A stretch of DNA of 64,000 nt from a virus (lineage: Duplodnaviria; Heunggongvirae; Uroviricota; Caudoviricetes), in the IMG/VR virus record IMGVR_UViG_3300028648_000132. The stretch is one strand, 5' to 3'. The position numbers and the translations under genes were made by a program. Below are positions 1-64,000 of the stretch, piece by piece. The notes beneath the pieces were generated by a model, which was given only the letters and a program-made list of their open reading frames with translations, was not told where the DNA came from and searched no databases. Numbering within the stretch: position 1 is the first letter of the stretch; each line of letters opens with the position of its first letter.

Positions 1-167
1 GAACCGGATGTCCAGACGGTTTGGGCGCGGGCGTAGCCGCCGCCGGTCGACTCGTTGGAGGGTGTCTGTGAGGTTCCGGGTGCGCCGGTCGCGCACCCAA
101 ACCAGTTGCCTAGTGCCTTCCAGGCGTCGGCGAGGGATTGCCGCGTCTGGGGTACTTGAATTGCCAT
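1..167 (-). CDS. hypothetical tail-region protein, N-terminal fragment; the gene continues past the window start
   Basis: ATG at 167..165 is preceded by a GGAGA RBS that overlaps the stop of the upstream minor tail gene. The frame stays open to position 1 (MAIQVPQTRQSLADAWKALGNWFGC...). Confidence 0.45.
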   Translation of the reverse strand, partial: MAIQVPQTRQSLADAWKALGNWFGCATGAPGTSQTPSNESTGGGYARAQTVWTSG

Positions 168-175
168 GTGGTCTC

Positions 176-1309: not shown

Positions 1310-1474
1310 CTACGGACCGGCGAATCCTATGCAGGAGACCATCTGACCGTCTGCGTCGTTGGTGCCGGTGATTTGTATCCAGTTGGGTGGGTTGGTTTTC
1401 CCGTCGGCGTCCAGGCCGCCGCGCACGGCGGTGAAGGTGATGCCGGGCAGTTCAGGCATGGTGAATGTAGTCAT
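1310..1474 (-). CDS. small hypothetical protein (54 aa), not in the ORF track
   Basis: ATG at 1474 with an AGAGAGAGG RBS 22 nt after the upstream stop. Its TAG stop abuts the ATG of the following gene. Sequence: MTTFTMPELPGITFTAVRGGLDADGKTNPPNWIQITGTNDADGQMVSCIGFAGP. Confidence 0.4.
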   Translation of the reverse strand: MTTFTMPELPGITFTAVRGGLDADGKTNPPNWIQITGTNDADGQMVSCIGFAGP

Positions 1475-1496
1475 CGCTGATGCCTCTCTCTGGTGG

Positions 1497-4013
1497 TTAT
1501 GCGATGCGGCGGCCGTCGAATGTGGCTATGCCGGATAGCGCTGTGATGCTTCGTGAGACAACGGTTTCCGAGCCGGTTGAGCCGTTGGACCGTATGTCGT
1601 AGTCGACCGCGATGAATCCTGGCTGCACGACATCTCCCGCCACCAGCGGGATTTCGAAGGCGCAACCCGACGGGATAGCGCCGGTGATGCGGGTGCCGTT
1701 CTTGTACACCACCCAGTAGGGCACGGATGTGCCCTTGGCGGTGACCGATCGGTAGGTGGTGTTGATGCGGTAGAGGCCGGTGGTGGTGATTTCGATGCGG
1801 GCTGTGCCCAGGTCGTCGAGGGTGACGTCGGTGGTGTAGTCGTTGAATGTGAAGAAACCGGACGGGAACGCACCGGAAGAATAGGGGCCGTAGGTGACGT
1901 CGGCGGTGCTATCTCGTCTGATGCTCCACGAATTTGACATCGAGAATCCTGCTCCCGCAGAGGTGTAATCGGACATCGCGAACGCGGCGACCCGGTAGGA
2001 GTCGTAGGTGAAAAACGGGCTCGCCCGCTGCACGCTGAACATCGAATACCGGTATGCCGCACCGATGCTGATGGTGTTGCCCGCGTCGGTGGCGGAGAGG
2101 ACCTGTCGGCCGTTGACGCGCACGAAGTAGTTGGTGCCCGCGCAGCGGATCTCGATGCGCGCGCCCTGCTTGACCGCCGAGAGCCCCGTCTGGAGCGTTA
2201 GGGGTGCGCTGAACGACCAGCTGGTACCCGAGCGGGTGAACTTGCCGATGCGGATCTCGCCCTCTTTGGCCAGGCAGTAGGCGCCCTGTGTGCGGCCCGA
2301 GTCGCATCGGATATAGACACCGGAGTAGTAGTTGCCATTTTGGGTGTCGCCCAACACAAATGACGCTGACTGGCCATCGGTGGCGTAGGTGTAGTTCGGG
2401 CTGGCGAAGAAGTACCCGTCGGAGTTGCCGTTCTTGACGCCCGCGTACCCCGAGTCCCCGCGAATAGTCACGTCTCCGGGGTTGGGTCCGGTGGTCCAGT
2501 CTGTCGAGTTCAGTGCGGCGCCGTCGGCGCCGGAGAAGGTGAAGCTGTAGCTGTTGCCGCCGCCGGTGTTCTGCTCGGTTTCCTGCTCCTGCAACGTGGT
2601 TTGCGCCGCGATTGCGCTCTTGAGTGCGTCGCGCGAGAGGCCGAGCAGCGATAGCAGTGATTCCTTGGCCTGGTTGATCTGCTCGCCGATGGTTCCCGTT
2701 GTGCTCGTGCCTGTTCCGTCGGCGCCAGTTTTGACGCCGGTCAGCATGTCGCCGAGGTTGCTGACCAGATCGTTGACCCGGCCCATGTCGAAATTGCCGA
2801 CCACGTCGCCCGCGTTCAGTGTCCCGCCAGCGGTGAGCTTCTGAGTCTTGTTGTTGCTCAGCCCGAACCAGTCCTTGACGGCCTGGATGGTCGAGTTGAT
2901 GGGTGTGACCACAAGCCCGCCGAAGATGTCCCGTATCTGGTTCAGCTGGGCGTTGAGGTCGGGGAGATCGGTGACCTTGGTCTGCGGGAGTAGCGGGATG
3001 TTGCCTAGGCCGAGCAAGCCCAGTATCTCTGCTGCGTCGATCTTGCCGTCAGCAGTGATTGCGGCGAGACGGTTTTGGATGTCGCCGATTTCGGCGTTGA
3101 CCTGACCGGCGACGGTGTCGAAGAACTCCTTGAAGCGGTCCAGTCCGACCTTGTGCGCCAGCTCCTCCAGGGCATTGCCAATGTCGGTGCCGAACTGCTC
3201 CAGCTGGGTGACAAGATCCTGCACGTAGTCCTGCGGGAGCTTCCCGGTCTTCCAGGTATCGGCGTCGTCGAACCACACGGCGCCTGCGGTGACGTCGCCG
3301 GTCACTAGGAGCGTGGTGCGGACTTCGTCGACGCCAGTGTCGGGCACGGTGTAGGTGCCGTGCAGCTCCACCCATCCGCTGCTGTCGGCCGCCGTCGGCT
3401 GGTGCTGGGCAACGACTGTCGACGAAACAGGGTTACCCGCCAGGTACGAGGTGACGATCAGCCGGATGGGGTTGGTGCCAGCACCAGCGGTAAGGCCCTG
3501 CCAGCGGGTGAATACCTCCAGTTCCAGGTGCTGCTTCTTGGCCACCGGTATGGCGTTGGAGTGCAGGTATTTTGCGACCCCTGCCATGACGGCCTTGACC
3601 GATCCCAATGGGCTGGTGCGGCCGATGGTGCCGTCCCACAACCAGTCCGGGTTGTCGACGACCGCGGCGTCGGTGTCGAAGCCGCCGTTGAGTAGCAGGT
3701 TCGGGAACCACTCGCCGATCTGTGACAGGGGGATGAGCGGCAGCAGTCCGGGCTTGATCCACGACAGGACGTTCGCAATGCCCTTCTTCAGCTCGTCCAG
3801 CCACTCGATGATCTCGGGGATGGGGTTGGTGGCTATACCCAGCAGGGAGTCGATGAGCCGTTGGAGTTCCTTCTGGATCATCACCGGCAGCTGCTTGAGG
3901 ACATCGCCGAGGTTGTTGATGGTCTTCTTGAGCGCCGGGTCCTGGGCGAGTTGGTTGGTCGGGTCGTATTCCGTCTTGAAGTTCTGTGGGACCAGATCGA
4001 CTGACCGAGGCAT
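1497..4013 (-). CDS. minor tail protein (838 aa)
   Basis: Start chosen at MPRSVDLVPQNFK (ATG at 4013), which overlaps the TAA of the upstream gene (TAATG). The upstream 68 codons of the track ORF are Arg/His-rich junk. Large beta-rich C-terminus typical of actinophage minor tail proteins. Confidence 0.7.
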   Translation of the reverse strand: MPRSVDLVPQNFKTEYDPTNQLAQDPALKKTINNLGDVLKQLPVMIQKELQRLIDSLLGIATNPIPEIIEWLDELKKGIANVLSWIKPGLLPLIPLSQIGEWFPNLLLNGGFDTDAAVVDNPDWLWDGTIGRTSPLGSVKAVMAGVAKYLHSNAIPVAKKQHLELEVFTRWQGLTAGAGTNPIRLIVTSYLAGNPVSSTVVAQHQPTAADSSGWVELHGTYTVPDTGVDEVRTTLLVTGDVTAGAVWFDDADTWKTGKLPQDYVQDLVTQLEQFGTDIGNALEELAHKVGLDRFKEFFDTVAGQVNAEIGDIQNRLAAITADGKIDAAEILGLLGLGNIPLLPQTKVTDLPDLNAQLNQIRDIFGGLVVTPINSTIQAVKDWFGLSNNKTQKLTAGGTLNAGDVVGNFDMGRVNDLVSNLGDMLTGVKTGADGTGTSTTGTIGEQINQAKESLLSLLGLSRDALKSAIAAQTTLQEQETEQNTGGGNSYSFTFSGADGAALNSTDWTTGPNPGDVTIRGDSGYAGVKNGNSDGYFFASPNYTYATDGQSASFVLGDTQNGNYYSGVYIRCDSGRTQGAYCLAKEGEIRIGKFTRSGTSWSFSAPLTLQTGLSAVKQGARIEIRCAGTNYFVRVNGRQVLSATDAGNTISIGAAYRYSMFSVQRASPFFTYDSYRVAAFAMSDYTSAGAGFSMSNSWSIRRDSTADVTYGPYSSGAFPSGFFTFNDYTTDVTLDDLGTARIEITTTGLYRINTTYRSVTAKGTSVPYWVVYKNGTRITGAIPSGCAFEIPLVAGDVVQPGFIAVDYDIRSNGSTGSETVVSRSITALSGIATFDGRRIA

Positions 4014-5416
4014 TAGACCGGCATGACCTCGACGTAAAGCTGGGCGTTGGCCTTGTCGAACAGGTAGGCACCGGCCAGGCCATCGTTGTAGAGGTTGACG
4101 TAGACGGTTCCCTGGTTGCCGGTGTGGTTGGGCGGCACCAGGGCGTAGGTGTTGTCCGGCGTGATGGCCATGGTGGGGTCGGACGGTGTCGACGCGTGCG
4201 GCGACATGTGCGCCCACTGGGACGTGTTACCGAAGCCGCGGGCAATGAGTTGGCCGGAGGTGGGGTGACCCAGTCGGACCTCGCAGCCGATGATGAGCGG
4301 GTCCTGGTCCAGCTCCACACCGGTCGCCTTGATCTTGCCGAACACAATCGGCTTCCACGGGAATGGTTGCGCAGGAATGGCAAAGGACCCGATGGGTGCC
4401 CGGGTGGAGAAGCCCTGGAAGTTGGTGAACGCGGCCTCGGGCACGGTGAACGGCCTGGGCAGGATCGATCCAATGGACATGGGCCGCCACTTACCGGATG
4501 CCCCGATGTTCTCGTCGAAGCCCAGGACCTGGAGGTGCTGCGGCGGTGTGGACATGTCGACGTCCGGGGCCTGCCCGAGGCTGGCGGCAGGACCTTGCGG
4601 GCCGCGCGGCACCTTCAAGTACAGGCGGCAGGACGGCGCGTACGGGGAGCCGGTCTGGTGAACGTATGAGTCCTGGGCGCCCTCTGGTGGGAGAAGCTCA
4701 ACGCTCCAACTGATCTGAGGCACCGGCCCCGGCGGGCCTTCCGATCCCATCATCAGGATGCGGTACTCGGTGCCGAACCAGATGTAGGCGCGAGACCCGA
4801 TGAGGTTGGTGACGCCCTCCTGCTCTGTGGTCACGACCACGGACGGGCTGGTGCCGCCGGTGGGTGTACCGGTCATCTGCGGCTGCCCGATGCCTGCTTT
4901 GGAACCGGCGAAGGTCACGGTGTATGGGCCGCCGGGGTTACCGACAACCTCGACGTCGCCAGTCGAGACATTGGGCAGAGCAACCAGTGCGTCCTCGAAG
5001 GCCTGGGCGGTGGCGTTACCGGCGATAGATGCGGTCGGCTGGCCGTCGTACGCGAGGGTGAAGGAGGTGGGGCCACCGTTGAGCGTCACCGTCTGTACCT
5101 CGTTGACGGTGGCGTAGTGGTTCATGATCCAGTACTTGCCGATGTCCTCGTCGATGTCCTGGAGGTTGGTCGGCAGGTCCTCCGGGTCGTCGATCAAGGA
5201 CTTCTGGAGGCGTAGCGCGAAGGCGTTGGTACCGGCCGGACCCTGCGGCCCCATGAGAGCGGGAACCACCAAAGTCGCCTGATCGCCTTGGATTTCCATG
5301 GTGACCGCGTACTGGTCCGGTGTCGCACCGTCGGACACCACGGCATAGATGTGGGTGTTGGTCAGCAGCGACTTGAGGTACACCATCAGGCCGATGGGTG
5401 GTACCGGTGCAGTCAT
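4013..5416 (-). CDS. minor tail protein with a short collagen-like G-x-y stretch
   Basis: 467 aa. Strong AAGGAGGA RBS upstream of the ATG at 5416. Contains the motif MGPQGPAGTNAF. Located between other minor tail proteins. Confidence 0.75.
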   Translation of the reverse strand: MTAPVPPIGLMVYLKSLLTNTHIYAVVSDGATPDQYAVTMEIQGDQATLVVPALMGPQGPAGTNAFALRLQKSLIDDPEDLPTNLQDIDEDIGKYWIMNHYATVNEVQTVTLNGGPTSFTLAYDGQPTASIAGNATAQAFEDALVALPNVSTGDVEVVGNPGGPYTVTFAGSKAGIGQPQMTGTPTGGTSPSVVVTTEQEGVTNLIGSRAYIWFGTEYRILMMGSEGPPGPVPQISWSVELLPPEGAQDSYVHQTGSPYAPSCRLYLKVPRGPQGPAASLGQAPDVDMSTPPQHLQVLGFDENIGASGKWRPMSIGSILPRPFTVPEAAFTNFQGFSTRAPIGSFAIPAQPFPWKPIVFGKIKATGVELDQDPLIIGCEVRLGHPTSGQLIARGFGNTSQWAHMSPHASTPSDPTMAITPDNTYALVPPNHTGNQGTVYVNLYNDGLAGAYLFDKANAQLYVEVMPV

Positions 5417-6025
5417 CTAGTCCTCCTTGGGACGGGGTGCGTCGGTGTAGCGGACCTCTGCCTTCGTGCGCCATTCGGCGGTAACGACCGGCCCCTCGCC
5501 GTCACGGCGGGCAGCTAGGCCGCGGACGTCGGGTGGGCGGAGTCGGTCGTCGCTGTAATCGCCTGGCTGTAGGTCGCGTTCGGCGTCGTCGGGGGCGTTG
5601 ACGTCCACCCATGTGCACGCGTTCTCATAGATGCCTGGTCCATGCATGCGGCGCTTCTTGATGTGCGCGGTGGCAGTGCGGCGGAATCCGTAAAGCACTG
5701 CGGTCCAGGCGATTGCGAGGATGGTGGCGGACATGTGGTTGAGGTCGTGGACGCGCCCGTTTTGGTCGACCGGGTACTCCATGACCTCCAGCAGCTCCAG
5801 GTATGCGCGCTGTATCTCGCGCATTTCCGCGACCTTCGCGGCCTGCTCGATGTCCAGGCCGGCATCGAGGCCGACCTGCATATCTGGTGTGAGGTCGGCA
5901 ATTTCGGCGTCATCTGCCGCCGCACAGACGGCGAGGTCGCGCGGGGACAGGGCGGCGTCGGCCACTGGAGGGGGCACCTGGTCTGCCGGTACGCGGTGGG
6001 CCTTGCCCGGCCGGTCGGCGGCCAT
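5417..6025 (-). CDS. hypothetical tail-region protein
   Basis: ATG at 6025 overlaps the stop of the upstream gene (TGATG). The track ORF's first 15 codons start at a TTG and are probably not translated. Confidence 0.5.
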   Translation of the reverse strand: MAADRPGKAHRVPADQVPPPVADAALSPRDLAVCAAADDAEIADLTPDMQVGLDAGLDIEQAAKVAEMREIQRAYLELLEVMEYPVDQNGRVHDLNHMSATILAIAWTAVLYGFRRTATAHIKKRRMHGPGIYENACTWVDVNAPDDAERDLQPGDYSDDRLRPPDVRGLAARRDGEGPVVTAEWRTKAEVRYTDAPRPKED

Positions 6026-7860
6026 CAGAAGATGGTTCCTTCGCCAAGGAATTGGGACAGGGTCGTCCAAACGGCCTGCAATGCACGAAGACCCCGCGCT
6101 GCGGGGTCTTCTTTGTCGCTGTCGTCGCCGATCGCCAGTTGCACTGTGACCGGCTCATTTCGGGACCACGTTCGCTTTATGGCGGTGATCTGGTCGACGA
6201 AGATGATGCCGCCCTGCTCGAACCCGGCCCGGTCGCCCAGGCCGATGTCGATGTCTATGGCGTGGGGTCGACCATTGACGACCTTGACCGTAAAGCCCTG
6301 CCAGGCGCGGGTTTTGAAGTGTCCAACGCGCATGGTGACGACGCCAGACAGTGTGTAGGCGGTGCCGCCGCCCTTCTCGAAATGCTCCTGCCAGGCCATG
6401 TCGCCGGTCCAGAGCGCGCGCCGCGGATCGGTGAAGCGCATCCAAGCCAGCAAAGTATTGTCCAGCTGCCCTTGATAGAGGTTGTCCAAACCTTCGGTGC
6501 CTGGCTGCTGGTAGGCGCCTATTGCATAGTTGATCACCTGCGCTAGTTGCGACAGCGCATATCTGATAGCAAATGTCTGGGCTTGGTTAACAATCTGCGG
6601 GCTACGGGAGCCCGTCATCACCGTTTTGACCGGCCCCTTATGTTGTCGCCGCTCTGACTCGATGATCCCGCTGAATTGGCCGTCGTACCAGATGGTTTTC
6701 GGCTTCTCCGGTGCAACGCCCAGCAGCTTCCGGAACACCGGATCGGTCTCGCCATCACCGTCCTCATCGAGGTTGATGAGGGTTTCGGTGATCATGTCGT
6801 CCAACGTGGCGCCGATGAGGTTGATGACACCGTCGGCCGCCGTTCCGGTCGGGCCGGTCACCCCCGACTTGTCCTCGATGGCGAAGACGATGCAGTTGCG
6901 GTGCGGCCGGGTGACATCGTTGACCGCCTCCTCAGCGACGGTGCCCCGCACCAGGTCTACGAGTTCGGTGTGTGGGGAGTCCTTGTCTTCCTTGAGCCAG
7001 GTGTAGGCGCGGAAGTCGCATCCCGCGTCCTTCAACATGTCGTTCATCGCCGCGTGCCAGTCCGTCCATGCCGCGCCGACGACAGAGAGGCGGGACTGGT
7101 CCAGGAGCGGGTTGACGAAGGCGACTTGGAGCGGCCAAGACAGTGGGTCGAGTCCACTGATGCCGCCGTTGAGCCAGCCGAAGGGGTTGAAGACATTGGT
7201 CGGGATGGACAGGAGCGGGAAGAACAGCCGCGCCAGGTTGATGAACATGGACGCGGACAGGATGGTGCGGGTATTGCCTGGTAGCACCCACATTTTCGGC
7301 AGCTGGACCTCGGGAGGAAACACGGGGTTGGCGGCGAAAAGCAGGTTTTTCGCATGCTGCCGGTTGCTGATGGCCTCCAGCTCCAGCGTGTGGACGCCGG
7401 ACGAGTCACGCTTGGCGTTGATGCCGGTGACCTTCCCGCCCCACCGGGTACGCCAGGTGGCCTGTGTGGGGATGGGGTCGACGACTAGGTGCAGGTCCTC
7501 GTGGATTTTGGTCTGTTGGAGGATGAAGTCTGTGAGCCAGTTGTCGTACCGCAGTACAACATTGGCCTGACCGGAGTCCGAGTGCATCTCCTCGACGGAC
7601 GCCAGCCGCTCGCCCGCAATCTGGGCGATAGGGTCCATGTTCTTGTCGAAGAGGCGCAGCATGGGTCGCTGGCGTGCCGCGCCTTCGATGGCGTCGCGTC
7701 GGCCGCGCAAGTACTTGTAGGCCGACATGGGGTCGGTGGCCGGGTCCGGCTTCGTGGGCCGATTCAACGTGTCTACGAGGGCGTCGTTGAGCCACCGGGT
7801 GAACTCCAGTGGCGCTGTTACTAATCCGTGCTGTACGCCATCTAGGAGTGCGCTAGTCAC
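6025..7860 (-). CDS. minor tail protein (611 aa)
   Basis: GTG start at 7860 immediately follows the upstream stop and has an AAGAGG RBS. Large protein in the tail block downstream of the tape measure. Confidence 0.7.
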   Translation of the reverse strand: MTSALLDGVQHGLVTAPLEFTRWLNDALVDTLNRPTKPDPATDPMSAYKYLRGRRDAIEGAARQRPMLRLFDKNMDPIAQIAGERLASVEEMHSDSGQANVVLRYDNWLTDFILQQTKIHEDLHLVVDPIPTQATWRTRWGGKVTGINAKRDSSGVHTLELEAISNRQHAKNLLFAANPVFPPEVQLPKMWVLPGNTRTILSASMFINLARLFFPLLSIPTNVFNPFGWLNGGISGLDPLSWPLQVAFVNPLLDQSRLSVVGAAWTDWHAAMNDMLKDAGCDFRAYTWLKEDKDSPHTELVDLVRGTVAEEAVNDVTRPHRNCIVFAIEDKSGVTGPTGTAADGVINLIGATLDDMITETLINLDEDGDGETDPVFRKLLGVAPEKPKTIWYDGQFSGIIESERRQHKGPVKTVMTGSRSPQIVNQAQTFAIRYALSQLAQVINYAIGAYQQPGTEGLDNLYQGQLDNTLLAWMRFTDPRRALWTGDMAWQEHFEKGGGTAYTLSGVVTMRVGHFKTRAWQGFTVKVVNGRPHAIDIDIGLGDRAGFEQGGIIFVDQITAIKRTWSRNEPVTVQLAIGDDSDKEDPAARGLRALQAVWTTLSQFLGEGTIF

Positions 7861-8874
7861 CTACCGAGACCTCTTATAGCGTTGCGGCAGTATCGCGGTG
7901 ACCTTTGCGTGGGGGTCGCTGTGCTTGACCCTGATCTGTGCGACATGCCTGGATGGGACTGATGCCTGGAACCGCTTGTCGAACCGCTTCCACACCGGCT
8001 CACCGGTCGCTGCCAGGTCGTGGAGCAGGAAGTCCAATATCTTTGAGCGCCTGGCGATCTGGTAGAAGATGTTGTCGACCGGGTCGTTGGACGCTGTGAG
8101 AGTCCGTTCCCTCGGGTCGGTGTCGACGAGGACGTATCCGTCCGACGGCGCGATGAGCGGCAGCTCGACCATGCGTCCGCTGTCGCCGTCCTCGACCCAG
8201 CAGCGTCCGGGCGGGACGATGAACTGGGTGAAGGACTCCAGATCGCCGCGGTTGGGCAATACGATGACGCCTTCTCCGTTGCCGCCGAATTGTGCTGCGG
8301 TGGCAGGGTTGTTCTGCCATGTGGCCCAGATGGATGGCTTGCTGTAGTACGGCTTTTGCGCCAGCCACTTCATCGGCCACTTGGCGAAGTTGTTGCCGAA
8401 GGCGACGGGGTCCCGCTTCTGGCTGCCGCCTATGGTCTGGGCGGGCCGCACCCTGATCCAGCGCCACCCGGAGAAGCGGGTGTATATGCCGAGCCAGCCG
8501 TCGCGGTTCTCATCCTGGCCGCGGAACCAGCGGTCCTCGGCCATGCGGTACTGGAAGTTGTTGAACGGTGCGCCCTTACCGCCGATGGATACGGTGAAGT
8601 TGATTTCGCGTTTGAGGATGTTGGCCCGCTCGACGGTGGCCCCTAGCTCGTAGGCGCCTTCGGTCAGCAGCAGTTCGAATGGCCAGTGATGCTCGCCCTC
8701 GATGTCCTCGGACAGCTGGACGCCCTGGCGTCCGGCGTTGATGCCGCCGTACATGTCCGTGAAGTCCCCGTCGGGGGATATGTAGACGATGCGTGTGTCT
8801 AGGCCCTGTAGGGCCTTCGGCAGCTTGTCCCATTGGTCGTAGGCGGGGATCTCGGACTGCCGGATGAACTTCAC
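7861..8874 (-). CDS. minor tail protein (possible distal tail protein)
   Basis: 337 aa. GTG start overlaps the tape-measure stop (GTGA). It is the first gene after the tape measure, the usual position of a Dit-like protein. Confidence 0.6.
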   Translation of the reverse strand: MKFIRQSEIPAYDQWDKLPKALQGLDTRIVYISPDGDFTDMYGGINAGRQGVQLSEDIEGEHHWPFELLLTEGAYELGATVERANILKREINFTVSIGGKGAPFNNFQYRMAEDRWFRGQDENRDGWLGIYTRFSGWRWIRVRPAQTIGGSQKRDPVAFGNNFAKWPMKWLAQKPYYSKPSIWATWQNNPATAAQFGGNGEGVIVLPNRGDLESFTQFIVPPGRCWVEDGDSGRMVELPLIAPSDGYVLVDTDPRERTLTASNDPVDNIFYQIARRSKILDFLLHDLAATGEPVWKRFDKRFQASVPSRHVAQIRVKHSDPHAKVTAILPQRYKRSR

Positions 8875-11800
8875 GGCTTCGGCAGTCCCGTCATCCGGGT
8901 GTTCATCCGGTCGGGCGGCTTGACCAGTCCCCCTGGGTCGTTGATGGTGACGGGGCCGTAGAACGCGGCGCCGGTGGCGCTGTTGTTGTTGCTGTTCTGG
9001 TTGGTCGTGTAGTTGTTGTTGCCGGGGTTCTGGCTGTTGGGCAGGAAGTCTCCGACCTGCGGCAGTGCTGCTTGTAGTGCGTCACCGACGACGCCCATGC
9101 CGCCGTCGCCGAAGTTGAAGTCGCCGAGTCCGCCGTCACCGGGGCCGGGTGCGCCGCCAAGGCCGTGACGGTTGTTGCGCATGGCCTGGGTGCCCATGGG
9201 GTTCTGCTGCTGTTGCTGCGGTCCGCCGAATGCGTTCTTGAGCATTCCGCCAATGGCGTTGGCGCCGCCGGTGAACAGTTTGAAGATTCCCCAGTCCATG
9301 GGGTTGGAGAAGATGGAGCCGTCGAGGCCGAACATCTCCATGGCGCCGGACATCATGTCTTTGGCGAAGCTCTTGCCGTCCGGCCCGCTGCCGGGCTGCT
9401 GACCGTTCTGGCCGCCGCGCCCACGCGTGTCAGCGTCGTTGACCTGTTCCTGCTTCGTGGACAGGTCATCGAGGGCGTCCTTGTGTTCGCGCTGCGCCCT
9501 GGTCAACCGCTCCTCGGCTGCCGCCTGCTCGGACGGCTTCACGTTCTTCTTGCTCTGGAGTTCGTCGAGCTTTCGCTGCGCCTGCTCGACGTCGAACTGC
9601 TTGTCCTGCACCTTCTGCTCCGCATCGCGCAGCTGGCGGCGTTGCGCGGGGGACGCACCCCCGCCGCCCCCACCGGAGCCGTAGCCGCCTGCCCCACCGC
9701 CGCCACCGCCGGAGCCGTACATGCTGTAGCCGCCGCCTGCTGCCCCACTAGGCCAGCCGTCGGGATACATGGCGTTGACGGGGATGTACGCCTGGTTAGT
9801 GAACTGGGGGTCGTCTGCACCTGCGGCCCCCGCACCGACCGTGAACTTGCCGACCTTGCCACCAGATTCGGCGTTACGGCCATCAGGAAGGGTCACGGCC
9901 ATATGGCCGCCACCGGGGCCGCCGTTCTTCCACCCGACACGCAGGGTGCCAGCGGGACCGCGGCCCATGACTGCGCCGCGAGCGGCCAGCCAGTCCCCGG
10001 CGTTAGCCGTCGCCATGCGCTCGCCGTATGGGGGTTGACCGACGGCGGCGTTGACAAGGACAGAGGCTGCGCCGGAACAGTCGGTACCGGACGGGCCGTG
10101 GCCGCCCCGCACGTAGGGTGCGCCCGCCATGTCGTTGGCTGCGTCCTCGATTGAGATGGGGCCGCCGCCCGCGTATCCGGGTATGCCGGTCATGATGCGC
10201 AGGAAGTTGGCCGACGGTACCCAACCGCGGTTCATGGCATTGATCAGCGGCATGTTGTCCCGGGTGGACTGTGCGGTGTTGATCGACTCCTTGTTCGATA
10301 CCTTGATGAATTGTCCTGCTGCACCACCCATTACGCGGGCAAGGATGGAATCACTGGTGCCTGTTCCCTGGCCGCTGATGACTCCCCGGCCGTCGACGTG
10401 TCCGCCAGAGGCGCGGCCTGGGACCTGCCCGGCGAGGGTGGCCGCGTTGAACACGCCCTGCAATCCGGGCGGCAAGATCGCGCCGAGCGAGTTGGCCAGC
10501 TTGAGATCAATGGGCAGAGTTGCGGTCGTATTGTTGACCTTGTACACCAGGTCGTTGAAACGCTTCTGCGCCTCATCGGTTGCAGCAGTGACCTTTACGA
10601 TGCCACCAGGCAGTTGAGTGACGGTGTACCCGAGTTCTTCGAGCTTCTTTTTGGTCTCGTCGTACTTCGCCGGGTCGACCTTGAGGTCGATGGACTTGTT
10701 GTTCGGCACCGAGACGATGGCGGCGCCAAGGTCCTTGAACCTTGCGACGCCCACGTCGGTCGCCTTCCACAAGCCGTACTGTGCTTGTGCCATGTCCCGC
10801 AACGACTGTGCGCCCTTGTCTGTCTCGCGGCGCTGCTCGTTGACGTTCTGAGTCAGCGTGATAAGCGACTCATTGGCGTCGGGCATCGCGTCGATAATCT
10901 GTTGCAGTCCAACGAGGTTCTGGTCACCCGGGTTGGCTGCGCGGTACTTGGCGATCTTGCCGTTGACGGTGTCCCAGCCGTTGCCCTCCTTGATGAGGGC
11001 GTTGTACAGCTCATCGGAGGAGACGCCCATGGCCTGGTACTGCTGCTGGATTACGTTCCAGTCCAGCTTGGTGCCGCCGGACCCGGTGATGGAAACCTTG
11101 TCCAGGCCCTCTCGGACGCCCTTGTCCAGCGCCAGCTTTTTGATGATGTCGTATGCCTGTGCGTTGCCGGTGCCAGTTGCGGCGTCCACCAACATGTTTG
11201 GGTCGATGCCGAGGCCCTTGGCCCGCCCGATGTCGGTTGTCTTGTACGGGTCTTCCTTGCCGAATCGTTCGGCGGCCTTGCGGCGGGTCTCATCGGTGAC
11301 GCGACCGCTGTCCTGGTCCAGGGTGGCGCGTAGTTCCTCCTCAGCCTGCTTCTGCTCCTGCGCCTTCTGGGCCGCCTTCTGGTGGGCGTCGGCGATCATT
11401 CCCATAGCGAGGCCGACACCGGCGGCGGCGACGCCCCACGGGCCGCCGAGCATGGACAGGACGCCGGACCCGGCGAGCTTCATGCCGGTCATCGCTGCGC
11501 CAGCTGTCCCCGCGGTGCGGGAGAAGAACAGGGACCGGTCGGCGGCCTGGTTGTAGCTGTCCTTCATCTGTGTTGCCCAGCCGCGTTGCGCGCGTGTCGA
11601 TTCGCCAGCTGTGCGGGTCGTGTTCTCCATGGCCTGTTGCGCCTGCGTAGCAGGGGTGCGCCACCCGGCAAAGGCGGTGCCCCATGCCTGGGTGGCCTTG
11701 GCGGCAACCTGTAGGGCGGGTCCGGCCAGCTTCGACTTGAGGTAGAGGGCGGTGAGGACAGCGACGAGGCCGGTGGTGAGCCACTGGTTGTTGCCGAGGA

Positions 11801-13577
11801 TGTCGGCCACAAGTTTCAGCGGCGGCTCCAGCGCCTGCATGGCGAAACCTAGGGCGCGCCAACCTGCTACAGCGGTTGCACCGGCGCCCATTGCGATGGC
11901 CTTGGATGCGGCGGCTAGCGAGGGCGTCAGGTCCTTGGCGGCGCTGGAGATGTCGCGCCAGCCCTGCCGGATCTGGTCGACCGCGGTACCGCTGCCGCCA
12001 CCGCCGGTCCTGAGGTCACGCATCGCGTCGGCGGCCTTGTCCAGCCAGCCAGTCATCCCCCTACCGGCTGACTGCAAAGTCGGCGAAACCAGGTCGTACA
12101 GAGCCAGCTTCGCGCTCTCGGCGGTGTTCTTGAGTCCCTCGACAACCCCCGGTAGGCCCTGCATCTGCGCGGCGGCCATCTCGCTGGCACCACCGGCGCG
12201 GCCGACAGCCCGGAACATCTCGTCGAACATCTGGACGCCGCCACCGGCTGCGACCATGGCCGCGCGCATCGCGTCAGAGCCAAACAAGATGTTGGTGTCG
12301 GCCTGGAACTGCTCTTCGGTCATCCTCTTTGACGCTGCGGCAACCTGTTCCAGCATGGAGCGGTAGCCGACGAACTTGCCGGTGGTGTCGTACAGGGTCA
12401 ACCCCAGGCTTTCGATAGCGCCCTGTGCGGGGTTGCCCTGGTCAGTGATGGCCTGGAGGGAGGTCTTGATGAGGGTGCCTGCATCGGAGCCGCGGATACC
12501 GGCGTTGGCCAGAAGTCCGAGGGCAGTAATCGTGTCCTGGGCGGTCAGCCCGAAGCCGTGAGCGACGGCACCGGCCTGCTGAAGACCGAGGGCGAAGTCG
12601 CCGATGTCGCCGGTGGATGCGTTGGCGACGTTGGCCAACATGTCAGCCATATTGGCCGCCTGGTTGGCGTCCATTCCGAAGGCGTGAAGGGCATTGGCCT
12701 GAATCTTGGCTGCCTCTGCTGCGGATACCTGTGCGGCGGTTGCTAATTGCAGGGTGCCGCGAGCCGCGGACATGGACTGGTCGACGTCGAAGCCGCCCTT
12801 GGCGAGTTCGGTCATGGCCTGGGCTGCGTCGGAGGCCGACACACCGGCGAGCTGAGTGTCAGCGCCCAGCTCGCGGGCGCGCCGAGAAACGGCCGCCATC
12901 TGCTCAGGTAGTGCGCGGGTGACGCCCTGCATGGTGTTGAGCGCCGAATCGAACGAAAGGCCCGTGTCGACAACGCTTTTGACGGCAGCGATGAATCCGC
13001 CGCCTGCGGCCAGTGCGGCGCCGGTGTTGAGGGCGCGCTGGAAGCCCTGCGCGAAGCGGGCGCCGGAGTCCGACCCGTACGCCTCGGCCCGCATGATCAG
13101 CCCCGCACCGAACGGCATCTTGACCTGACTGGACGCCTGCGACTGCGCCTTCTGAGCACGCTCCAAGTCCCGGGTGACGCGGGTCAGGTTCTGTGTCGAC
13201 ACCTCCTGTGCGCGCCGCGCCCGCGCCACACCCTCCTCAGCAGTAGCCCGCTGAGTGGCTGTGGCCCTGCCCTTCTCGTTGAGTTCGTTGAGTCGTGTCT
13301 GGGCGACGGTGAGGCGTCCCGTGGCGTCCGCGTCTGCCTTCTTCGCGGTCGCCAGTGCCTTCTCGGCACGTTCGACCTGGCGGAGTGCGTCGACCGCCGA
13401 CTTGCCGCTGGCGGCAAGGTTGCGGGCCATGTCGGCACCCATGGTGCGGGTGGCACGGCCGAAGCGGCGTTCCGCGTCGCGGCCGATGCGTTCGACGCCC
13501 GCGGCAAGGCCCGACGCCTCGGGCATCAGGGGCACCCATACTTGCGCCAGTTCAACGGCGGCGACTGCTGGACTCAA
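8871..13577 (-). CDS. tail tape measure protein (1568 aa)
   Basis: Very long protein with an Ala/Gln-rich coiled-coil N-terminus and internal Gly-rich segments. TTG start at 13577 with an AAAGGAG RBS, overlapping the stop of the chaperone T frame. Contains an embedded Cys-His peptidase-like motif (GPSGTDCSGA...GGGHMAV). Confidence 0.9.
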   Translation of the reverse strand: MSPAVAAVELAQVWVPLMPEASGLAAGVERIGRDAERRFGRATRTMGADMARNLAASGKSAVDALRQVERAEKALATAKKADADATGRLTVAQTRLNELNEKGRATATQRATAEEGVARARRAQEVSTQNLTRVTRDLERAQKAQSQASSQVKMPFGAGLIMRAEAYGSDSGARFAQGFQRALNTGAALAAGGGFIAAVKSVVDTGLSFDSALNTMQGVTRALPEQMAAVSRRARELGADTQLAGVSASDAAQAMTELAKGGFDVDQSMSAARGTLQLATAAQVSAAEAAKIQANALHAFGMDANQAANMADMLANVANASTGDIGDFALGLQQAGAVAHGFGLTAQDTITALGLLANAGIRGSDAGTLIKTSLQAITDQGNPAQGAIESLGLTLYDTTGKFVGYRSMLEQVAAASKRMTEEQFQADTNILFGSDAMRAAMVAAGGGVQMFDEMFRAVGRAGGASEMAAAQMQGLPGVVEGLKNTAESAKLALYDLVSPTLQSAGRGMTGWLDKAADAMRDLRTGGGGSGTAVDQIRQGWRDISSAAKDLTPSLAAASKAIAMGAGATAVAGWRALGFAMQALEPPLKLVADILGNNQWLTTGLVAVLTALYLKSKLAGPALQVAAKATQAWGTAFAGWRTPATQAQQAMENTTRTAGESTRAQRGWATQMKDSYNQAADRSLFFSRTAGTAGAAMTGMKLAGSGVLSMLGGPWGVAAAGVGLAMGMIADAHQKAAQKAQEQKQAEEELRATLDQDSGRVTDETRRKAAERFGKEDPYKTTDIGRAKGLGIDPNMLVDAATGTGNAQAYDIIKKLALDKGVREGLDKVSITGSGGTKLDWNVIQQQYQAMGVSSDELYNALIKEGNGWDTVNGKIAKYRAANPGDQNLVGLQQIIDAMPDANESLITLTQNVNEQRRETDKGAQSLRDMAQAQYGLWKATDVGVARFKDLGAAIVSVPNNKSIDLKVDPAKYDETKKKLEELGYTVTQLPGGIVKVTAATDEAQKRFNDLVYKVNNTTATLPIDLKLANSLGAILPPGLQGVFNAATLAGQVPGRASGGHVDGRGVISGQGTGTSDSILARVMGGAAGQFIKVSNKESINTAQSTRDNMPLINAMNRGWVPSANFLRIMTGIPGYAGGGPISIEDAANDMAGAPYVRGGHGPSGTDCSGAASVLVNAAVGQPPYGERMATANAGDWLAARGAVMGRGPAGTLRVGWKNGGPGGGHMAVTLPDGRNAESGGKVGKFTVGAGAAGADDPQFTNQAYIPVNAMYPDGWPSGAAGGGYSMYGSGGGGGGAGGYGSGGGGGGASPAQRRQLRDAEQKVQDKQFDVEQAQRKLDELQSKKNVKPSEQAAAEERLTRAQREHKDALDDLSTKQEQVNDADTRGRGGQNGQQPGSGPDGKSFAKDMMSGAMEMFGLDGSIFSNPMDWGIFKLFTGGANAIGGMLKNAFGGPQQQQQNPMGTQAMRNNRHGLGGAPGPGDGGLGDFNFGDGGMGVVGDALQAALPQVGDFLPNSQNPGNNNYTTNQNSNNNSATGAAFYGPVTINDPGGLVKPPDRMNTRMTGLPKP

Positions 13578-36363: not shown

Positions 36364-36497
36364 GGTGTGAGCGTGTGGGTGTCGTCCGGGTTTTAGCGCT
36401 CTAGGCCGCTGAGCTACAACCACTTTCGTGGCTGGCGGGATTCGAACCCGCGTCTCTCTCATGAAAGGAGATAACCGAACGAAGTCCTGTTCACACC
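36364..36497 (-). ncRNA. Y-RNA-like ncRNA module 3 (permuted tRNA-like; best preserved)
   Basis: Conserved motif, an anticodon-like hairpin UCUCC-UUUCAUG-AGAGA, T-arm GCGGG-UUCGAAU-CCCGC, acceptor 3' strand CAGCCAC, a GAAA loop, acceptor 5' strand GUGGUUG, then UA and a canonical D-arm GCUC-AGCGGCCUA-GAGC. Closing helix GGUGUGAAC / GCUCACACC. Confidence 0.55.
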
Positions 36498-36510
36498 GTG
36501 CTACGTATGG

Positions 36511-36665
36511 AGTTGTGTTGGGTGATGGGGCGAACGTGTGTGTGCTGACCGGGTTTAAGCGCTCTACCAACTGAGCTACAGCCGGGGGTTGGCTGGCGGG
36601 ACTCGAACCCGCGACCTCTCCATTAGCAAGTGGTAACCGATCTGCGTCCTGCTCGCACCATCTGG
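36511..36665 (-). ncRNA. Y-RNA-like ncRNA module 4 (permuted tRNA-like)
   Basis: Conserved motif, T-arm GCGGG-UUCGAGU-CCCGC, an acceptor-like hairpin CAGCC-AACCCCC-GGCUG, then UA and a canonical D-arm GCUC-AGUUGGUA-GAGC. Closing helix GAUGGUGCGAGC / GUUCGCCCCAUC. Confidence 0.5.
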
Positions 36666-59419: not shown

Positions 59420-59776
59420 TCAGGTGAGTGCTAGTTGTTGACTGCCGCCGAGGCGGTAGTGCATTTCCGCGACCCCGTCGGGCGTTAGGTAAATCTGTTT
59501 GGGGCGTTCTTTGGTTTGTCCTGTGGGCGTTTGGTATCCGCCTCCGTCATGGAGTGCGAGGTACCCGAGGGTCACGGACTCGGCGTAGGCGATCCAGCGG
59601 TGGTCACGGCCGCGGAATATCCATTCCTCGCGGGCCATGGCGTCGAATAGTTGGTCGCGGCCGACGGCGATTGCAGGGTCGAGAGATAGGAGGCGCGCAG
59701 CCTCGGCGACTGTTTGGTCACCCGTGATGTCCGTGAGATGCATTGGCAGCTCTGGCCGTTGATGGATGCGCGCCAT
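59420..59776 (-). CDS. antirepressor-like protein (KilAC/ANT-like domain)
   Basis: Start at MARIHQRPELPMHL. Core DQLFDAMAREEWIFRG...LTPDGVAEMHYRLGG resembles ANT/KilA-C domains. Confidence 0.45.
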   Translation of the reverse strand: MARIHQRPELPMHLTDITGDQTVAEAARLLSLDPAIAVGRDQLFDAMAREEWIFRGRDHRWIAYAESVTLGYLALHDGGGYQTPTGQTKERPKQIYLTPDGVAEMHYRLGGSQQLALT

Positions 59777-61035: not shown

Positions 61036-61950
61036 TTACGAGGGGAACTTCTCGATGACGCGTTGCAGCGCGTCTCGTGCGCGGACCAGGTCGCTCTTGC
61101 GTAGGGCGAGTTGGTCCGCGTTCTTGTCGAAGCGGTCGTCGGCCGCCAGTGCCTCTACCCGCTTCACCGCCTTCGTGACTGCCGTGGTGGCGTCGTCGAA
61201 GGAGTCTGTGATCGGTTTCCGGCGCGCTGGGGCTGGCGCTGGCTCGGGTTCCGGTTCTGCCGCGACGGGTTCTGTCAGGTCGTCGCAGTAGCGGTGGATG
61301 TCGTCGAACTCGTCGAAGCGTTCGTGGTCTTCCTGGGTGGCGTTGTCGTACAGCTCGATGCGGGCGCCGCAGGGGCATACGGCGAACGAGGTGAGGGTCG
61401 GCTGTACGCCGTCGGTCACGGGTGCGTTGTGCACGACTGAGTACCCGTCGCCGGAGATAAGTAGCGACGGGGTCAGTGGTGGCCCGGAGGCCGTCCCGCC
61501 GTGTGGCAAGTGGGCGGACTCCGGGTGGTCTTCGGTTGTGGGGAGGTCTGGCACGACGGCCAGGTGAGGGCGGACAGGCTGGGTGGACGCGTACGTCTTG
61601 CCGTCGGTGCCCATGACAGCCGCAGGTGCGGCAGATGCCGCGCCTGACAGGTCGCGGCGGACGGTGCGGTCATCGACTCCTATTGCGGAGCCGATTGCGC
61701 GTGTTGATAGGCCGAGGTCGCGCAGGGACTGCACTACCTCGCCGCGGGTCTCGCGGGGCAGCTTGAACCAGGTGGACCCGAACTCGCGTTCGCAGTAGAC
61801 GTCCCAGGTCGGGTATCCGAGAACTGCCCAGGCGCGGTCGGTGTAGGCCTTGGCGATGAGGTCCCAGGCCCGGTCAATTGTGGTGCGGATGCGCTCGGTG
61901 AGGTCACGAGCGGCCGAGGGGGACATGGCGGTGGCTGCGATGGTGCTCAT
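61036..61950 (-). CDS. HTH DNA-binding protein
   Basis: Start at MSTIAATAMSPSAARDL (ATGA overlap). HTH segment LRDLGLSTRAIGSAIGVDDRTVRRDL. Confidence 0.5.
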   Translation of the reverse strand: MSTIAATAMSPSAARDLTERIRTTIDRAWDLIAKAYTDRAWAVLGYPTWDVYCEREFGSTWFKLPRETRGEVVQSLRDLGLSTRAIGSAIGVDDRTVRRDLSGAASAAPAAVMGTDGKTYASTQPVRPHLAVVPDLPTTEDHPESAHLPHGGTASGPPLTPSLLISGDGYSVVHNAPVTDGVQPTLTSFAVCPCGARIELYDNATQEDHERFDEFDDIHRYCDDLTEPVAAEPEPEPAPAPARRKPITDSFDDATTAVTKAVKRVEALAADDRFDKNADQLALRKSDLVRARDALQRVIEKFPS

Positions 61951-62180
61951 GACGCGGCCTGTGCGTAGTCGTTGAGGTCGCGGGTGGCCTGGCGGGCCTG
62001 GGCGTAGAGGCGGACGGCCTGGTGGTCGAGCAGGTAGGTCTTGCCGACGAGTCGGGCGGGGATACGGCCGGAAACGGCGAGCGCCTGGAGAGTCCGTTTG
62101 GAGACGTTGTATGTAGTCGCGGCCTTGGTGACGGTGATCTCGTCTGGCTGCTCGGGTATCTCGGCGGTGGGTGCGGCCAT
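61947..62180 (-). CDS. Cro/excisionase-like HTH protein (first gene of the leftward early operon)
   Basis: Xis/MerR-type HTH TTYNVSKRTLQALAVSGRIPARLVGKTYLL. Start taken at the ATG at 62180; the track start at 62216 is a TTG. Divergent from the repressor gene across a 162-bp operator region. Confidence 0.55.
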   Translation of the reverse strand: MAAPTAEIPEQPDEITVTKAATTYNVSKRTLQALAVSGRIPARLVGKTYLLDHQAVRLYAQARQATRDLNDYAQAAS

Positions 62181-62342
62181 ACGCCCATCTTGCGCATATT
62201 CGCATAGTGCGCGCAAGCGCCTGCATTGAAGTTTTCGCAGTTAGGGAACTTATTGGCCTTTAGCAGCAATCAGCCGGTGTTTGCGGATTGGGCTATTTCG
62301 TACCACCTTGCGAGTGTGCGCGTACGCGCATAGCATGCGCAT
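62181..62342. promoter_or_regulatory. divergent immunity control region with operator-like dyads
   Basis: Two related dyads: CGCATAGTGCGCGC (~62201-62215) and CGCATAGCATGCGC (~62326-62340). Also a perfect 14-bp palindrome TGCGCGTACGCGCA at 62317-62330 and recurring GCGCATA heptamers, one of which overlaps the repressor start codon. Confidence 0.45.
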
Positions 62343-62645
62343 ATGACCGTTGCATACGAAACCGGGACTATCCCCCCAATGCGTCTGCGATACCGCCTAC
62401 AGATCGCACGGGAAGAAGCCCAACTAGATCAAAGGCAACTGGCCGACATGATGGGCGTCGGCCGGTCGGTAATTGGCAATTGCGAAAAGGGTCGGACCGT
62501 CCCTAAAAAGATCGTCCTCAACGCCTGGGCATTGGCCTGTGGAGTGCCAGTAAGTTGGCTAGCCGAGGGCGAAGGTGAGCAGCCGCCGGAGGGCGACGGG
62601 CCGTCTGTGGTGCGCCCGAAGGGATTCGAACCCCTAACCTTCTGA
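62343..62645 (+). CDS. immunity repressor (XRE-family HTH), prophage form with its C-terminus encoded across attR inside host tRNA-Arg
   Basis: 100 aa with the HTH LDQRQLADMMGVGRSVIGNCEKGRTV. Transcribed divergently from the cro-like gene. The last ~12 codons (VVRPKGFEPLTF*) are read from the tRNA-Arg gene. Confidence 0.6.
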   Translation: MTVAYETGTIPPMRLRYRLQIAREEAQLDQRQLADMMGVGRSVIGNCEKGRTVPKKIVLNAWALACGVPVSWLAEGEGEQPPEGDGPSVVRPKGFEPLTF

Positions 62646-62683
62646 TCCGTAGTCAGATGCTCTATCCGTTGAGCTACGGGCGC
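62608..62683 (-). tRNA. tRNA-Arg (anticodon ACG), CCA encoded; integration site (attR overlaps its 3' end)
   Basis: Cloverleaf: GCGCCCG-UA-GCUC-AACGGAUA-GAGC-A-UCUGA-CUACGGA-UCAGA-AGGUU-AGGGG-UUCGAAU-CCCUU-CGGGCGC-A-CCA. Confidence 0.9.
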
Positions 62684-62730
62684 TTACTATTCAATTGTTG
62701 CAGGTCAACAGGTTTGGCCTGCAGACCGAC

Positions 62731-62819
62731 GCGGAGGCGAGAGGATTTGAACCTCCGGTCCCCCGTAAAGGGGACAACTCATTAGCAGTGAGTCCCATTC
62801 GGCCGCTCTGGCACGCCTC
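62731..62819 (-). tRNA. tRNA-Ser (anticodon GCU), type II with a long variable arm
   Basis: GGAGGCG acceptor, D-arm GCCAGAGCGGCCGAAUGGGAC, anticodon loop CUGCUAA, and a long variable arm before the T-arm GGAGG-UUCAAAU-CCUCU. Coordinates are approximate to +/-1 nt. Confidence 0.85.
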
Positions 62820-62956
62820 CTGAACTTCCTGAGCGGGACTCCGGACCCATAAAAATGGATCCCGAACCGCCGAGGGCACAGAGTACAGGGCCGCGCGCCC
62901 CAAAGGCAAAGCCGTTGGTCGTCATCGGGCCCCACGTGCCCCGATAGTCTGGTCAC

Positions 62957-64000
62957 GTGCCCGCACGACTTCGCCCCGAACTGACCGAACTACCGGCCTA
63001 CACACCGGGCCGAAACGTCCCCGGCGCCATCAAGCTCGCCAGTAATGAGACCGTGCAGGAGCCGCTGCCGAGCGTGCGGGCCGCCCTCGCCGAGGCGGGG
63101 TCGCTGATCAATCGGTACCCCGATAATGGCTACGCCGAGCTGCGCTCGCACCTGGCCAAGCACGTCGACATGCCGCCCGAGCACATCGCGGTGGGGTGCG
63201 GGTCGGTGAGCCTATGCCAGCAGCTGGTCCAGATCACCGCAACGGTGGGCGACGAGGTGCTGTTCGGCTGGCGGTCCTTTGAGACCTATCCGTTGGTGGT
63301 GCGGGTCGCGGGGGCGACTCCGGTGCAGGTACCGCTGGTCGACCACACCTATGACCTCGCCGCCATGGCGGCCGCCGTAACCGACGTCACCCGGCTGATC
63401 TTCGTCTGCAACCCCAACAACCCGACCGGCACCGTGGTGCGGCCCGCCGAACTGCGGCGGTTCGTCGAGTCGGTGCCGCCGCATATCCTGATCGCGATCG
63501 ACGAGGCCTACGTCGAGTACGTACGCGAGGACTTCACCGACAGCCTCGCACTGGTGCGTGAGCACCCCAATGTCGTTGTCTTACGCACCTTCTCAAAGGC
63601 ATACGGCCTGGCGGGGCTGCGAGTCGGCTACGCGGTCGGCGATCCCGATGTGATCACCACACTGGGCAAGGTGTACGTACCGTTCAGCGCGTCGAGCCTG
63701 GCGCAAGCTGCCGCGGTGGCTTCCCTCGGCGCCGCCGAAGAGCTGCTCGCGCGCACCAATGACGTTGTCACCGAACGCGCCCGGGTGACCAGTGCGCTGC
63801 GGGAAGCCGGCTATCAGGTGCCGCCGTCGCAGGCGAACTTCGTGTGGTTGCCGCTGGGCGAGCGCTCCACCGAATTCGCGCAAGCCTCCGCCGAGGCCCG
63901 AATCATTGTGCGCCCCTTTGGAACCGATGGCGTCCGGGTGACCATCGGAGCACCGATGGAAAACGACGCGTTCCTGAAGTTCTCGCGCGCCTGGCGCTAG
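62957..64000 (+). CDS. hisC: histidinol-phosphate / aromatic amino-acid aminotransferase (class II PLP), host gene
   Basis: 347 aa with a GTG start. The PLP-lysine motif FSKAYGLAGLRVGY and NPNNPTG are typical of the HisC family. The synteny with tRNA-Arg and tRNA-Ser resembles the mycobacterial hisC2/pat locus. Confidence 0.85.
   Translation: MPARLRPELTELPAYTPGRNVPGAIKLASNETVQEPLPSVRAALAEAGSLINRYPDNGYAELRSHLAKHVDMPPEHIAVGCGSVSLCQQLVQITATVGDEVLFGWRSFETYPLVVRVAGATPVQVPLVDHTYDLAAMAAAVTDVTRLIFVCNPNNPTGTVVRPAELRRFVESVPPHILIAIDEAYVEYVREDFTDSLALVREHPNVVVLRTFSKAYGLAGLRVGYAVGDPDVITTLGKVYVPFSASSLAQAAAVASLGAAEELLARTNDVVTERARVTSALREAGYQVPPSQANFVWLPLGERSTEFAQASAEARIIVRPFGTDGVRVTIGAPMENDAFLKFSRAWR

Follow-up and report, generated by a model that had tools for sequence, protein, structure and literature searches.

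The right end of the window, by which we mean the whole 64,000-nt stretch of DNA that was analysed, is with high confidence the attR junction of a MabK-type temperate phage inserted at attB-1, the tRNA-Arg(ACG) gene of M. abscessus, and the ORF that crosses this junction is taken with the same confidence to be the prophage form of an integration-dependent immunity repressor. Comparison at the sequence level shows that the attP core lies inside the repressor gene (rep), that integration splits the gene and makes its stop codon, that the tail of the gene and the integrase gene (int) are moved away, and that the tRNA is rebuilt. The features at and around the junction, in window coordinates, are as follows.

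62343-62645, plus strand: predicted prophage-form immunity repressor, with an HTH domain at about residues 18-79 and a C-terminus (...VVRPKGFEPLTF) encoded by the att core
62610-62644, no strand assigned: attR common core of 35 bp, GTGCGCCCGAAGGGATTCGAACCCCTAACCTTCTG, found in both the phage attP and the M. abscessus attB
62643-62645, plus strand: TGA stop codon made at the junction, TG coming from the core and A62645 being the first host-only base
62608-62683, minus strand: intact tRNA-Arg(ACG) of the host, of which the core takes in the last 35-37 nt at the 3' end
62646-64000, plus strand: host M. abscessus flank, comprising the rest of tRNA-Arg, a tRNA-Ser(GCU) and an aminotransferase gene
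62731-62820, minus strand: tRNA-Ser(GCU) of the host flank
62957-64000, plus strand: class I/II aminotransferase (Pfam Aminotran_1_2)

The ORF at 62343-62645 starts with ATG and specifies 100 aa. A preliminary description of this DNA had assigned it to the HTH_XRE repressors, and profile searches bear this out: the product matches Pfam HTH_3 (E=2e-10), HTH_31, HTH_19 and Phage_CI_repr, as well as PHROG 2328 'transcriptional repressor' (E=2e-30), of whose 128-position profile it spans positions 1-101 only. Its identity is 96% to the repressor of prophiT37-1, 73% to that of GD43A-5, 61-66% to Bipper gp51 and 51-54% to the Cluster G (Angel) gp33, and homology to the BPs/Angel gp33-type repressor family (PHROG 2328) covers both the HTH domain and the core-encoded segment. 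An in-frame TAG stands at 62334-62336, three codons 5' of the ATG, where T37-1 and GD43A-5 have TAC; an N-terminally extended repressor of the kind annotated in relatives (a 138-aa protein; a 392-nt misc_feature in T37-1) is thus ruled out for the window, which supports ATG 62343 as the true start. The repressor mRNA may be leaderless, as no Shine-Dalgarno-like sequence is obvious 5' of this ATG.

The tRNA-Arg(ACG) gene was located at 62608-62683 on the minus strand by ARAGORN and scores 71.6 bits with Rfam, against a gathering score of 29. As the preliminary description had noted, the repressor ORF reads into it; the overlap amounts to 38 nt (62608-62645), with the ORF antisense to the tRNA, and takes in the CCA end, the 3' strand of the acceptor stem, the T arm, the variable loop and the 3' side of the anticodon stem, so that the ORF ends 3 nt before the anticodon (62648-62650). 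The 35-bp core was set by comparing the empty M. abscessus site, attR and attL, and lengthens to 37 bp (62608-62644) when the M. salmoniphilum copy of the prophage is used. From 62610 to 64000 (1391 nt) the host flank is 100% identical to M. abscessus CP065263.1, in which the site is empty: there an AHSA1-family gene (...gcggatga) is followed by GTGCGCCCGAAGGGATTCGAACCCCTAACCTTCTG and then by atccgtag... and the remaining tRNA-Arg, while in the window phage sequence (...ccgtctgtg) stands directly before the 35-bp core. Since the host flank is identical and phage sequence borders the core exactly, the insertion was precise, and because the empty site shows precise insertion at this place the overlap of ORF and tRNA is not coincidental. 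The aminotransferase protein encoded in the host flank is present in thousands of M. abscessus assemblies.

The same comparison shows what integration contributes to either gene. The tRNA is intact at attR, and the empty-site tRNA is identical to it save for nucleotides at the CCA position, in keeping with the earlier proposal that the insertion reconstitutes the tRNA 3' end. In M. abscessus without the prophage, the tRNA-Arg gene does not encode the CCA (...GGGCGCAC-TCA; the empty site reads ...CACTCA), and in the lysogen the phage-derived bases at 62608-62610 give ...GGGCGCAC-CA, so that the tRNA gene gains an encoded CCA end upon integration. With respect to the repressor, the preliminary description had considered its last ~12 codons and its stop codon to be host-derived. 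This needs correction for the codons, which are those of the core carried by the phage attP: they are not of host origin because virions of Bipper, Angel, Weirdo19 and Arri carry the core in their genomes. What holds is the host contribution to the stop codon, where A62645 alone is host-only; the phage-form counterpart of this TGA codon is TGG (Trp).

A single copy of the core occurs within the 64,000-nt window, and attL therefore lies outside it; the ~92% identity to the 76-kb MabK prophages places attL roughly 12 kb to the left. A leftward walk by exact-protein look-ups reached near-identical copies of the prophage in four independent assemblies (M. salmoniphilum PECJ01000008.1, M. abscessus ERZ24842353 and two Logan assemblies). 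The attL was read from these copies and not from the window's own genome, since the repeated core interrupts short-read assemblies. Relative to the window, the PECJ copy has 3 mismatches in 11.3 kb on the left and 2 in 10.3 kb on the right, and the first 1165 nt of the window show no mismatch in three of the copies and one in the fourth (L020). In all four, attL consists of the core followed by GTCAGTAGTTCGAAACCC..., with the repressor frame open for 35 more codons (WSVVRNPLTCIDAEPTDLVEHRSRRRAAELEADAA, then stop). In the near-identical copies, rep is followed after a gap of 125 nt by an adjacent tyrosine integrase gene (334 aa, PF00589) on the same strand; no terminator-like site was seen between rep and int on their strand. 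The integrase ends ...LPPIYPGS and does not carry an ssrA-like -AA tag. In the PECJ prophage, which is 74,309 bp long, the attL and attR cores are identical over exactly 37/37 bp, with no extension on either side.

By homology, the window coordinates would be about -11.66 kb for attL and about -11.4 to -10.4 kb for int, and the attL of the source strain would read the 35-bp core and then GTCAGTAGTTCG... in frame. In the near-identical copies the integrase thus lies where the preliminary description had expected it, beyond the position of the window's left edge at the opposite end of the prophage, 125 nt past the repressor tail, and the attL core agrees with the tRNA segment at attR (37/37 bp in the M. 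salmoniphilum copy, 35 bp against the M. abscessus attB). Scanning genome contigs with the GD43A-5 integrase returned integrases of 45-59% identity in Rhodococcoides, Rothia, Nocardia and one Mycobacterium MAG. At the Rhodococcoides kyotonense locus, the core is followed by a tail ending -DNAA just 5' of int. In two Rothia genomes (L010 5857-6795, L011 1552-2547) the frame through the tRNA-Arg core (VVRPKGFEPPTFCSVPS...) stays open into the integrase CDS, with no separate tail ending -AA; this could be a fusion frame of the rep tail and int, or a coincidence.

When the phage half of attR is fused to that of attL, the result is an in-frame repressor of 135 aa, 35 residues longer than the 100-aa prophage form and ending -ELEADAA. 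The core (62610-62644) lies inside the ORF in the repressor reading frame, and the frame of the reconstructed attP remains open for 35 codons past it. [quoted passage not shown] The tail of prophiGD43A-5 is nearly the same and also ends -EADAA. The virion relatives Bipper, Angel, Weirdo19 and the Gordonia phage Arri each have the tRNA-Arg core within the annotated repressor CDS, int next on that strand, and a divergent cro/RDF-like gene 5' of rep. Their repressors have 129 aa (Bipper gp51, ending -CDAA), 136 aa (Angel gp33, the BPs-type Cluster G repressor, ending -KAS), 135 aa (Weirdo19, -RAA) and 137 aa (Arri, -AAA). Among the related phages at the tRNA-Arg core, which the preliminary description had proposed to search for, is thereby Cluster G (Angel/BPs type), which serves as the prototype for integration-dependent immunity. 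All of the checks suggested in that description thus turned out in its favour.

A wider survey separates the copies by the kind of sequence that carries them. Those on long bacterial contigs stop at ...RPKGFEP[LP]TF, with 99-103 aa, save for one annotated as 138 aa from an upstream start, and those on phage genomes and short metagenomic contigs go on with W or C and 17-70 further residues, mostly ending -AA, -VA, -SA or -AS. The database word-index search with the 135-aa form scored 77 candidates only, so that the size of the family is underestimated, and tblastn of phage genomes gave 188 records. The Arri repressor (L025 2080-2255) reads the core in another frame (..GCARRDSNP.. versus the mycobacterial ..VRPKGFEP..), from which it follows that the core is conserved as DNA, for the tRNA and for Int recognition, and not as protein.

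The attL of prophiT37-1 (L002 4170-4211) is without one G right after the core (CTTCT-GTTAGG versus CTTCTGGTCAGT). Its reconstructed phage-form repressor would end after one extra codon (..TFC*), and the homologous tail (..VRNPLTCIDTEPTDL...TAAA*) remains open in the +1 frame; the misc_feature of its GenBank record owes its length, a multiple of 3, solely to the presence of both core copies in the record. The 1-nt deletion may have arisen by an error in sequencing, or T37-1 may be a tag-less variant that occurs naturally. The deletion implies that the tail is not strictly maintained in every MabK member.

The remaining elements of the switch lie to the left of the repressor gene, within the prophage body.

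62181-62342, no strand assigned: repressor/cro intergenic control region of 162 bp, with the repeats TGCGCATATTCGCATAGTGCGCGCA and TGCGCGTACGCGCATAGCATGCGCA
61947-62180, minus strand: divergent Cro-like gene, 77 aa (Pfam HTH_17; PHROG 7506, an RDF PHROG)
59420-59776, minus strand: antirepressor (KilAC/ANT domain) of the early lytic operon (Pfam ANT, E=4.5e-10; 'antirepressor' in prophiT37-1)
8871-13577, minus strand: tape measure gene, 1568 aa
1-62609, minus strand: MabK-type prophage body, with nearly all genes on this strand

Two TGCGCRTA-rich blocks of the 162-bp region are conserved in prophiT37-1 and prophiGD43A-5 and partly in Bipper, and four of the seven TGCGCRTA sites in the window fall in or at the edge of 62181-62342. 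These blocks are candidate operators or promoters. A simple consensus scan of the rep-cro region found no sigma-70 promoter, and the assignment as candidate operators or promoters consequently derives from the conserved repeats only. The Cro-like gene is labelled 'excise' or RDF in GenBank relatives and occupies the same position as Bipper gp52 and Angel gp34; its match to an RDF PHROG has a parallel in BPs-type phages. The ANT-domain antirepressor may counteract the repressor at induction. Leftward from here, the prophage body carries early genes and then structural genes as far as the tape measure and minor tail proteins; in the near-identical copies, lysis genes, a polymorphic-toxin cassette, int and attL follow to the left of the window.

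Two other tRNA-like sequences occur in the prophage body. ARAGORN called a tRNA-Ser(GGA) at 11909-12007 (plus strand), antisense inside the tape measure gene and below the Rfam gathering score, which is probably a false positive. At 36427-36620 (minus strand) Rfam reports a 159-nt 'tRNA' of 36.9 bits in which 100 nt replace the anticodon arm, with no ARAGORN call; the segment consists of alternating fragments of tRNA 3' halves and 5' halves (GCGGGTTCGA[G/A]TCCCGCCAGCC twice; GCTGTAGCTCAG / GTTGTAGCTCAG), and prophiGD43A-5 annotates a tRNA-Thr at its counterpart. A phage tRNA array that was disrupted or rearranged may account for this segment.

Integration-dependent immunity of BPs, Brujita and Charlie was reportedly described by Broussard et al. 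in Mol Cell in 2013. Its defining features are given in a review, and we took them from there (Hatfull, 2022; PMC9262239) and from work on M. abscessus prophages (Dedrick et al., 2021; PMC8092301); BPs, Brujita and Charlie are also summarised elsewhere (PMC9635641). In the prophage described here, integration splits rep at the core and leaves its 5' 300 nt at attR, where the first host base past the core converts TGG to TGA; the 35-codon tail and int end up ~74 kb away at attL, and the tRNA 3' end is rebuilt from the core. Such a junction stop codon has been described for both MabK (PMC8092301) and BPs (PMC9262239). By analogy with BPs, Brujita and Charlie, the long phage-form repressor would be unstable through its ssrA-like tail and would confer no immunity, and the truncated 100-aa form would be stable, bind operators in the 162-bp rep-cro region and silence the lytic operon. 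As only the truncated form would be stable and repressing, immunity would require integration. Degradation of the 135-aa phage form is predicted here from its homology to the BPs-type gp33 and from its tag. One element of the canonical decision circuit, a tagged integrase, is missing from this prophage, whose Int ends ...IYPGS.

This missing tag bears on how far the canonical circuit extends to MabK-type phages. It is conceivable, though we consider it doubtful, that they represent a functional variant in which Int is without ssrA-type control, the decision is set elsewhere and only the repressor keeps a removable tag; Int would be free of such proteolytic control because it is untagged and encoded 125 nt downstream of rep. 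Were this so, the ANT antirepressor or a small regulator next to int could set the lysis-lysogeny decision, the prophiT37-1 frameshift would be a natural 'tag-less' mutant with a dispensable tail, and the near-identity of the M. abscessus and M. salmoniphilum copies would indicate very recent cross-species spread.

Improbable, in our view, is the more radical reading that the split-gene architecture is real but the switch is independent of ssrA-type tail proteolysis, the long form being inactivated in another way or active without integration, with the lysogeny decision left to other factors, for instance the antirepressor or a regulator beside int. It draws on the lack of an -AA tag on Int, which PMC8092301 also reports, on the presence of an ANT-domain antirepressor, on the prophiT37-1 frameshift, which removes the phage-form tail from a prophage whose attP was nevertheless obtained by PCR, and on the Cluster G repressors (Angel ends -KAS), which are said to use other degradation signals (PMC8092301). 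However, the tail is in frame and ends -DAA in four assemblies and in prophiGD43A-5, and the tails of the family vary but mostly keep small C-terminal residues (-AA, -VA, -SA), which suggests selection on the terminus.

Integration-dependent immunity is to be set against two further readings, for which we see next to no room. That an ordinary CI-type repressor lies beside attR and overlaps the tRNA by chance, with attP downstream of a complete repressor gene, might be entertained since many temperate phages have a repressor near int/attP and a 38-nt overlap alone could be coincidental; it is refuted by the 35 further open codons in the reconstructed attP, by the core inside the annotated repressor CDS of virion relatives, and by a stop codon that is present only in the integrated state. 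A decayed prophage remnant, with a repressor shortened by deletion and a non-functional ORF, has nothing in its favour beyond the short length of the ORF and is rejected in view of the exact att cores and precise insertion, the near-identical copy of 74.3 kb with structural, lysis and int genes, the intact HTH domain, and the excision of the close relative prophiT37-1 (PMC9934374).

PECJ01000008.1, labelled M. salmoniphilum, carries its 74.3-kb prophage at the same tRNA-Arg, with 2-3 mismatches per 10-11 kb relative to the window, in a host flank that is clearly unlike that of the window (aminotransferase of 371 aa versus 347 aa). Such near-identity suggests that the prophage crossed between species very recently, or else that the assembly is mixed or mislabelled. 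Other M. abscessus genomes have a different integrative element at the same tRNA-Arg core (L019 12899-21185; L031, L032 and L035, ~1-9650), which encodes a 387-aa tyrosine integrase and an HTH_17 gene and in some copies also capsid, HNH and tape measure genes. In ERZ24842353 this other element stands in tandem, abutting the attL core of the MabK-type prophage.

The system, the prophage cluster and the attachment site are already known; new here are only a third MabK variant and the near-identical M. salmoniphilum copy, by which a known system gains one sequence variant and one host species and the understanding of it is unchanged. The main value of the analysis is correct annotation: the right end of the window holds the attR of a MabK-type prophage, with the 100-aa ORF as its predicted active immunity repressor. 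For immunity markers, the truncated 100-aa form should be cloned and not the 135-aa form, a point also made in PMC8092301; the same form is the target for deletion where lytic derivatives are engineered for phage therapy against M. abscessus (PMC8092301).

The closest known systems are the MabK prophages themselves. Dedrick et al. (2021, mBio; PMC8092301) count Cluster MabK, with attB-1 as its site, as one of the M. abscessus prophage groups that use integration-dependent immunity, so that the use of the system by this type of prophage has already been described. They report that the first bacterial base forms the repressor stop codon in MabK, that the tRNA is transcribed towards the truncated repressor, and that ssrA-type tags are missing on MabK integrases, an exception shared with MabC, MabN, MabO and MabH; the window prophage agrees on all three points. 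Its counterparts prophiGD43A-5 (MW584167) and prophiT37-1 (OQ417969) have the same gene order and ~92% nucleotide identity over the compared regions (92% to both over 1-12000, with 100% coverage; 93% in the immunity region, 61900-62644, with 93% coverage). MabK prophages, including the GD43A-type lysogen, use the same tRNA-Arg attB-1 site and likewise have an Int without an -AA tag, and the GenBank records of both annotate a split 'immunity repressor' at the prophage ends. PCR on both culture and supernatant detected the attP of prophiT37-1 (Amarh et al., 2023, PLoS One; PMC9934374). The window represents a third MabK sequence variant, in which the N-terminal part of the repressor is T37-1-like and the tail and int are GD43A-5-like; in the near-identical copies of the window prophage the frame continues past the core without the shift of T37-1.

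BPs (Cluster G), Brujita (I1) and Charlie (N) similarly have attP inside rep, followed by a tyrosine int, and a divergent cro-like gene. In Cluster G, too, attB is the 3' end of tRNA-Arg, and the core is essentially the 35-bp core of Angel; the BPs-type systems share the conversion of TGx to TGA at the junction, with a prophage form of ~100 aa and a phage form of ~135 aa. In contrast to the BPs type, the genome here is 74 kb and not ~42 kb, the junction codon is Trp (TGG) and not Cys, Int is untagged and encoded 125 nt from rep, whereas int overlaps rep there, and an antirepressor gene is present. Cluster Y (Bipper gp51/gp50, Cracklewink, Typha) resembles the window prophage in genome size (75-78 kb), in a repressor of 61-66% identity with an identical 36-bp core inside rep, in a phage form of 129 aa ending -CDAA with int downstream after a gap, and in conserved blocks of the rep-cro intergenic region. 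It differs in that its members were isolated as virions on M. smegmatis, in a tail that is unrelated past the first residues, and in DNA similarity that is patchy elsewhere. Lambda-type CI/Cro/CII switches likewise pair an HTH repressor with a cro-like gene transcribed in the opposite direction, and their tyrosine integrase acts at a tRNA-type att site. However, attP of lambda lies outside cI, and immunity and integration are separable there, whereas in the prophage described here integration physically splits the repressor gene.
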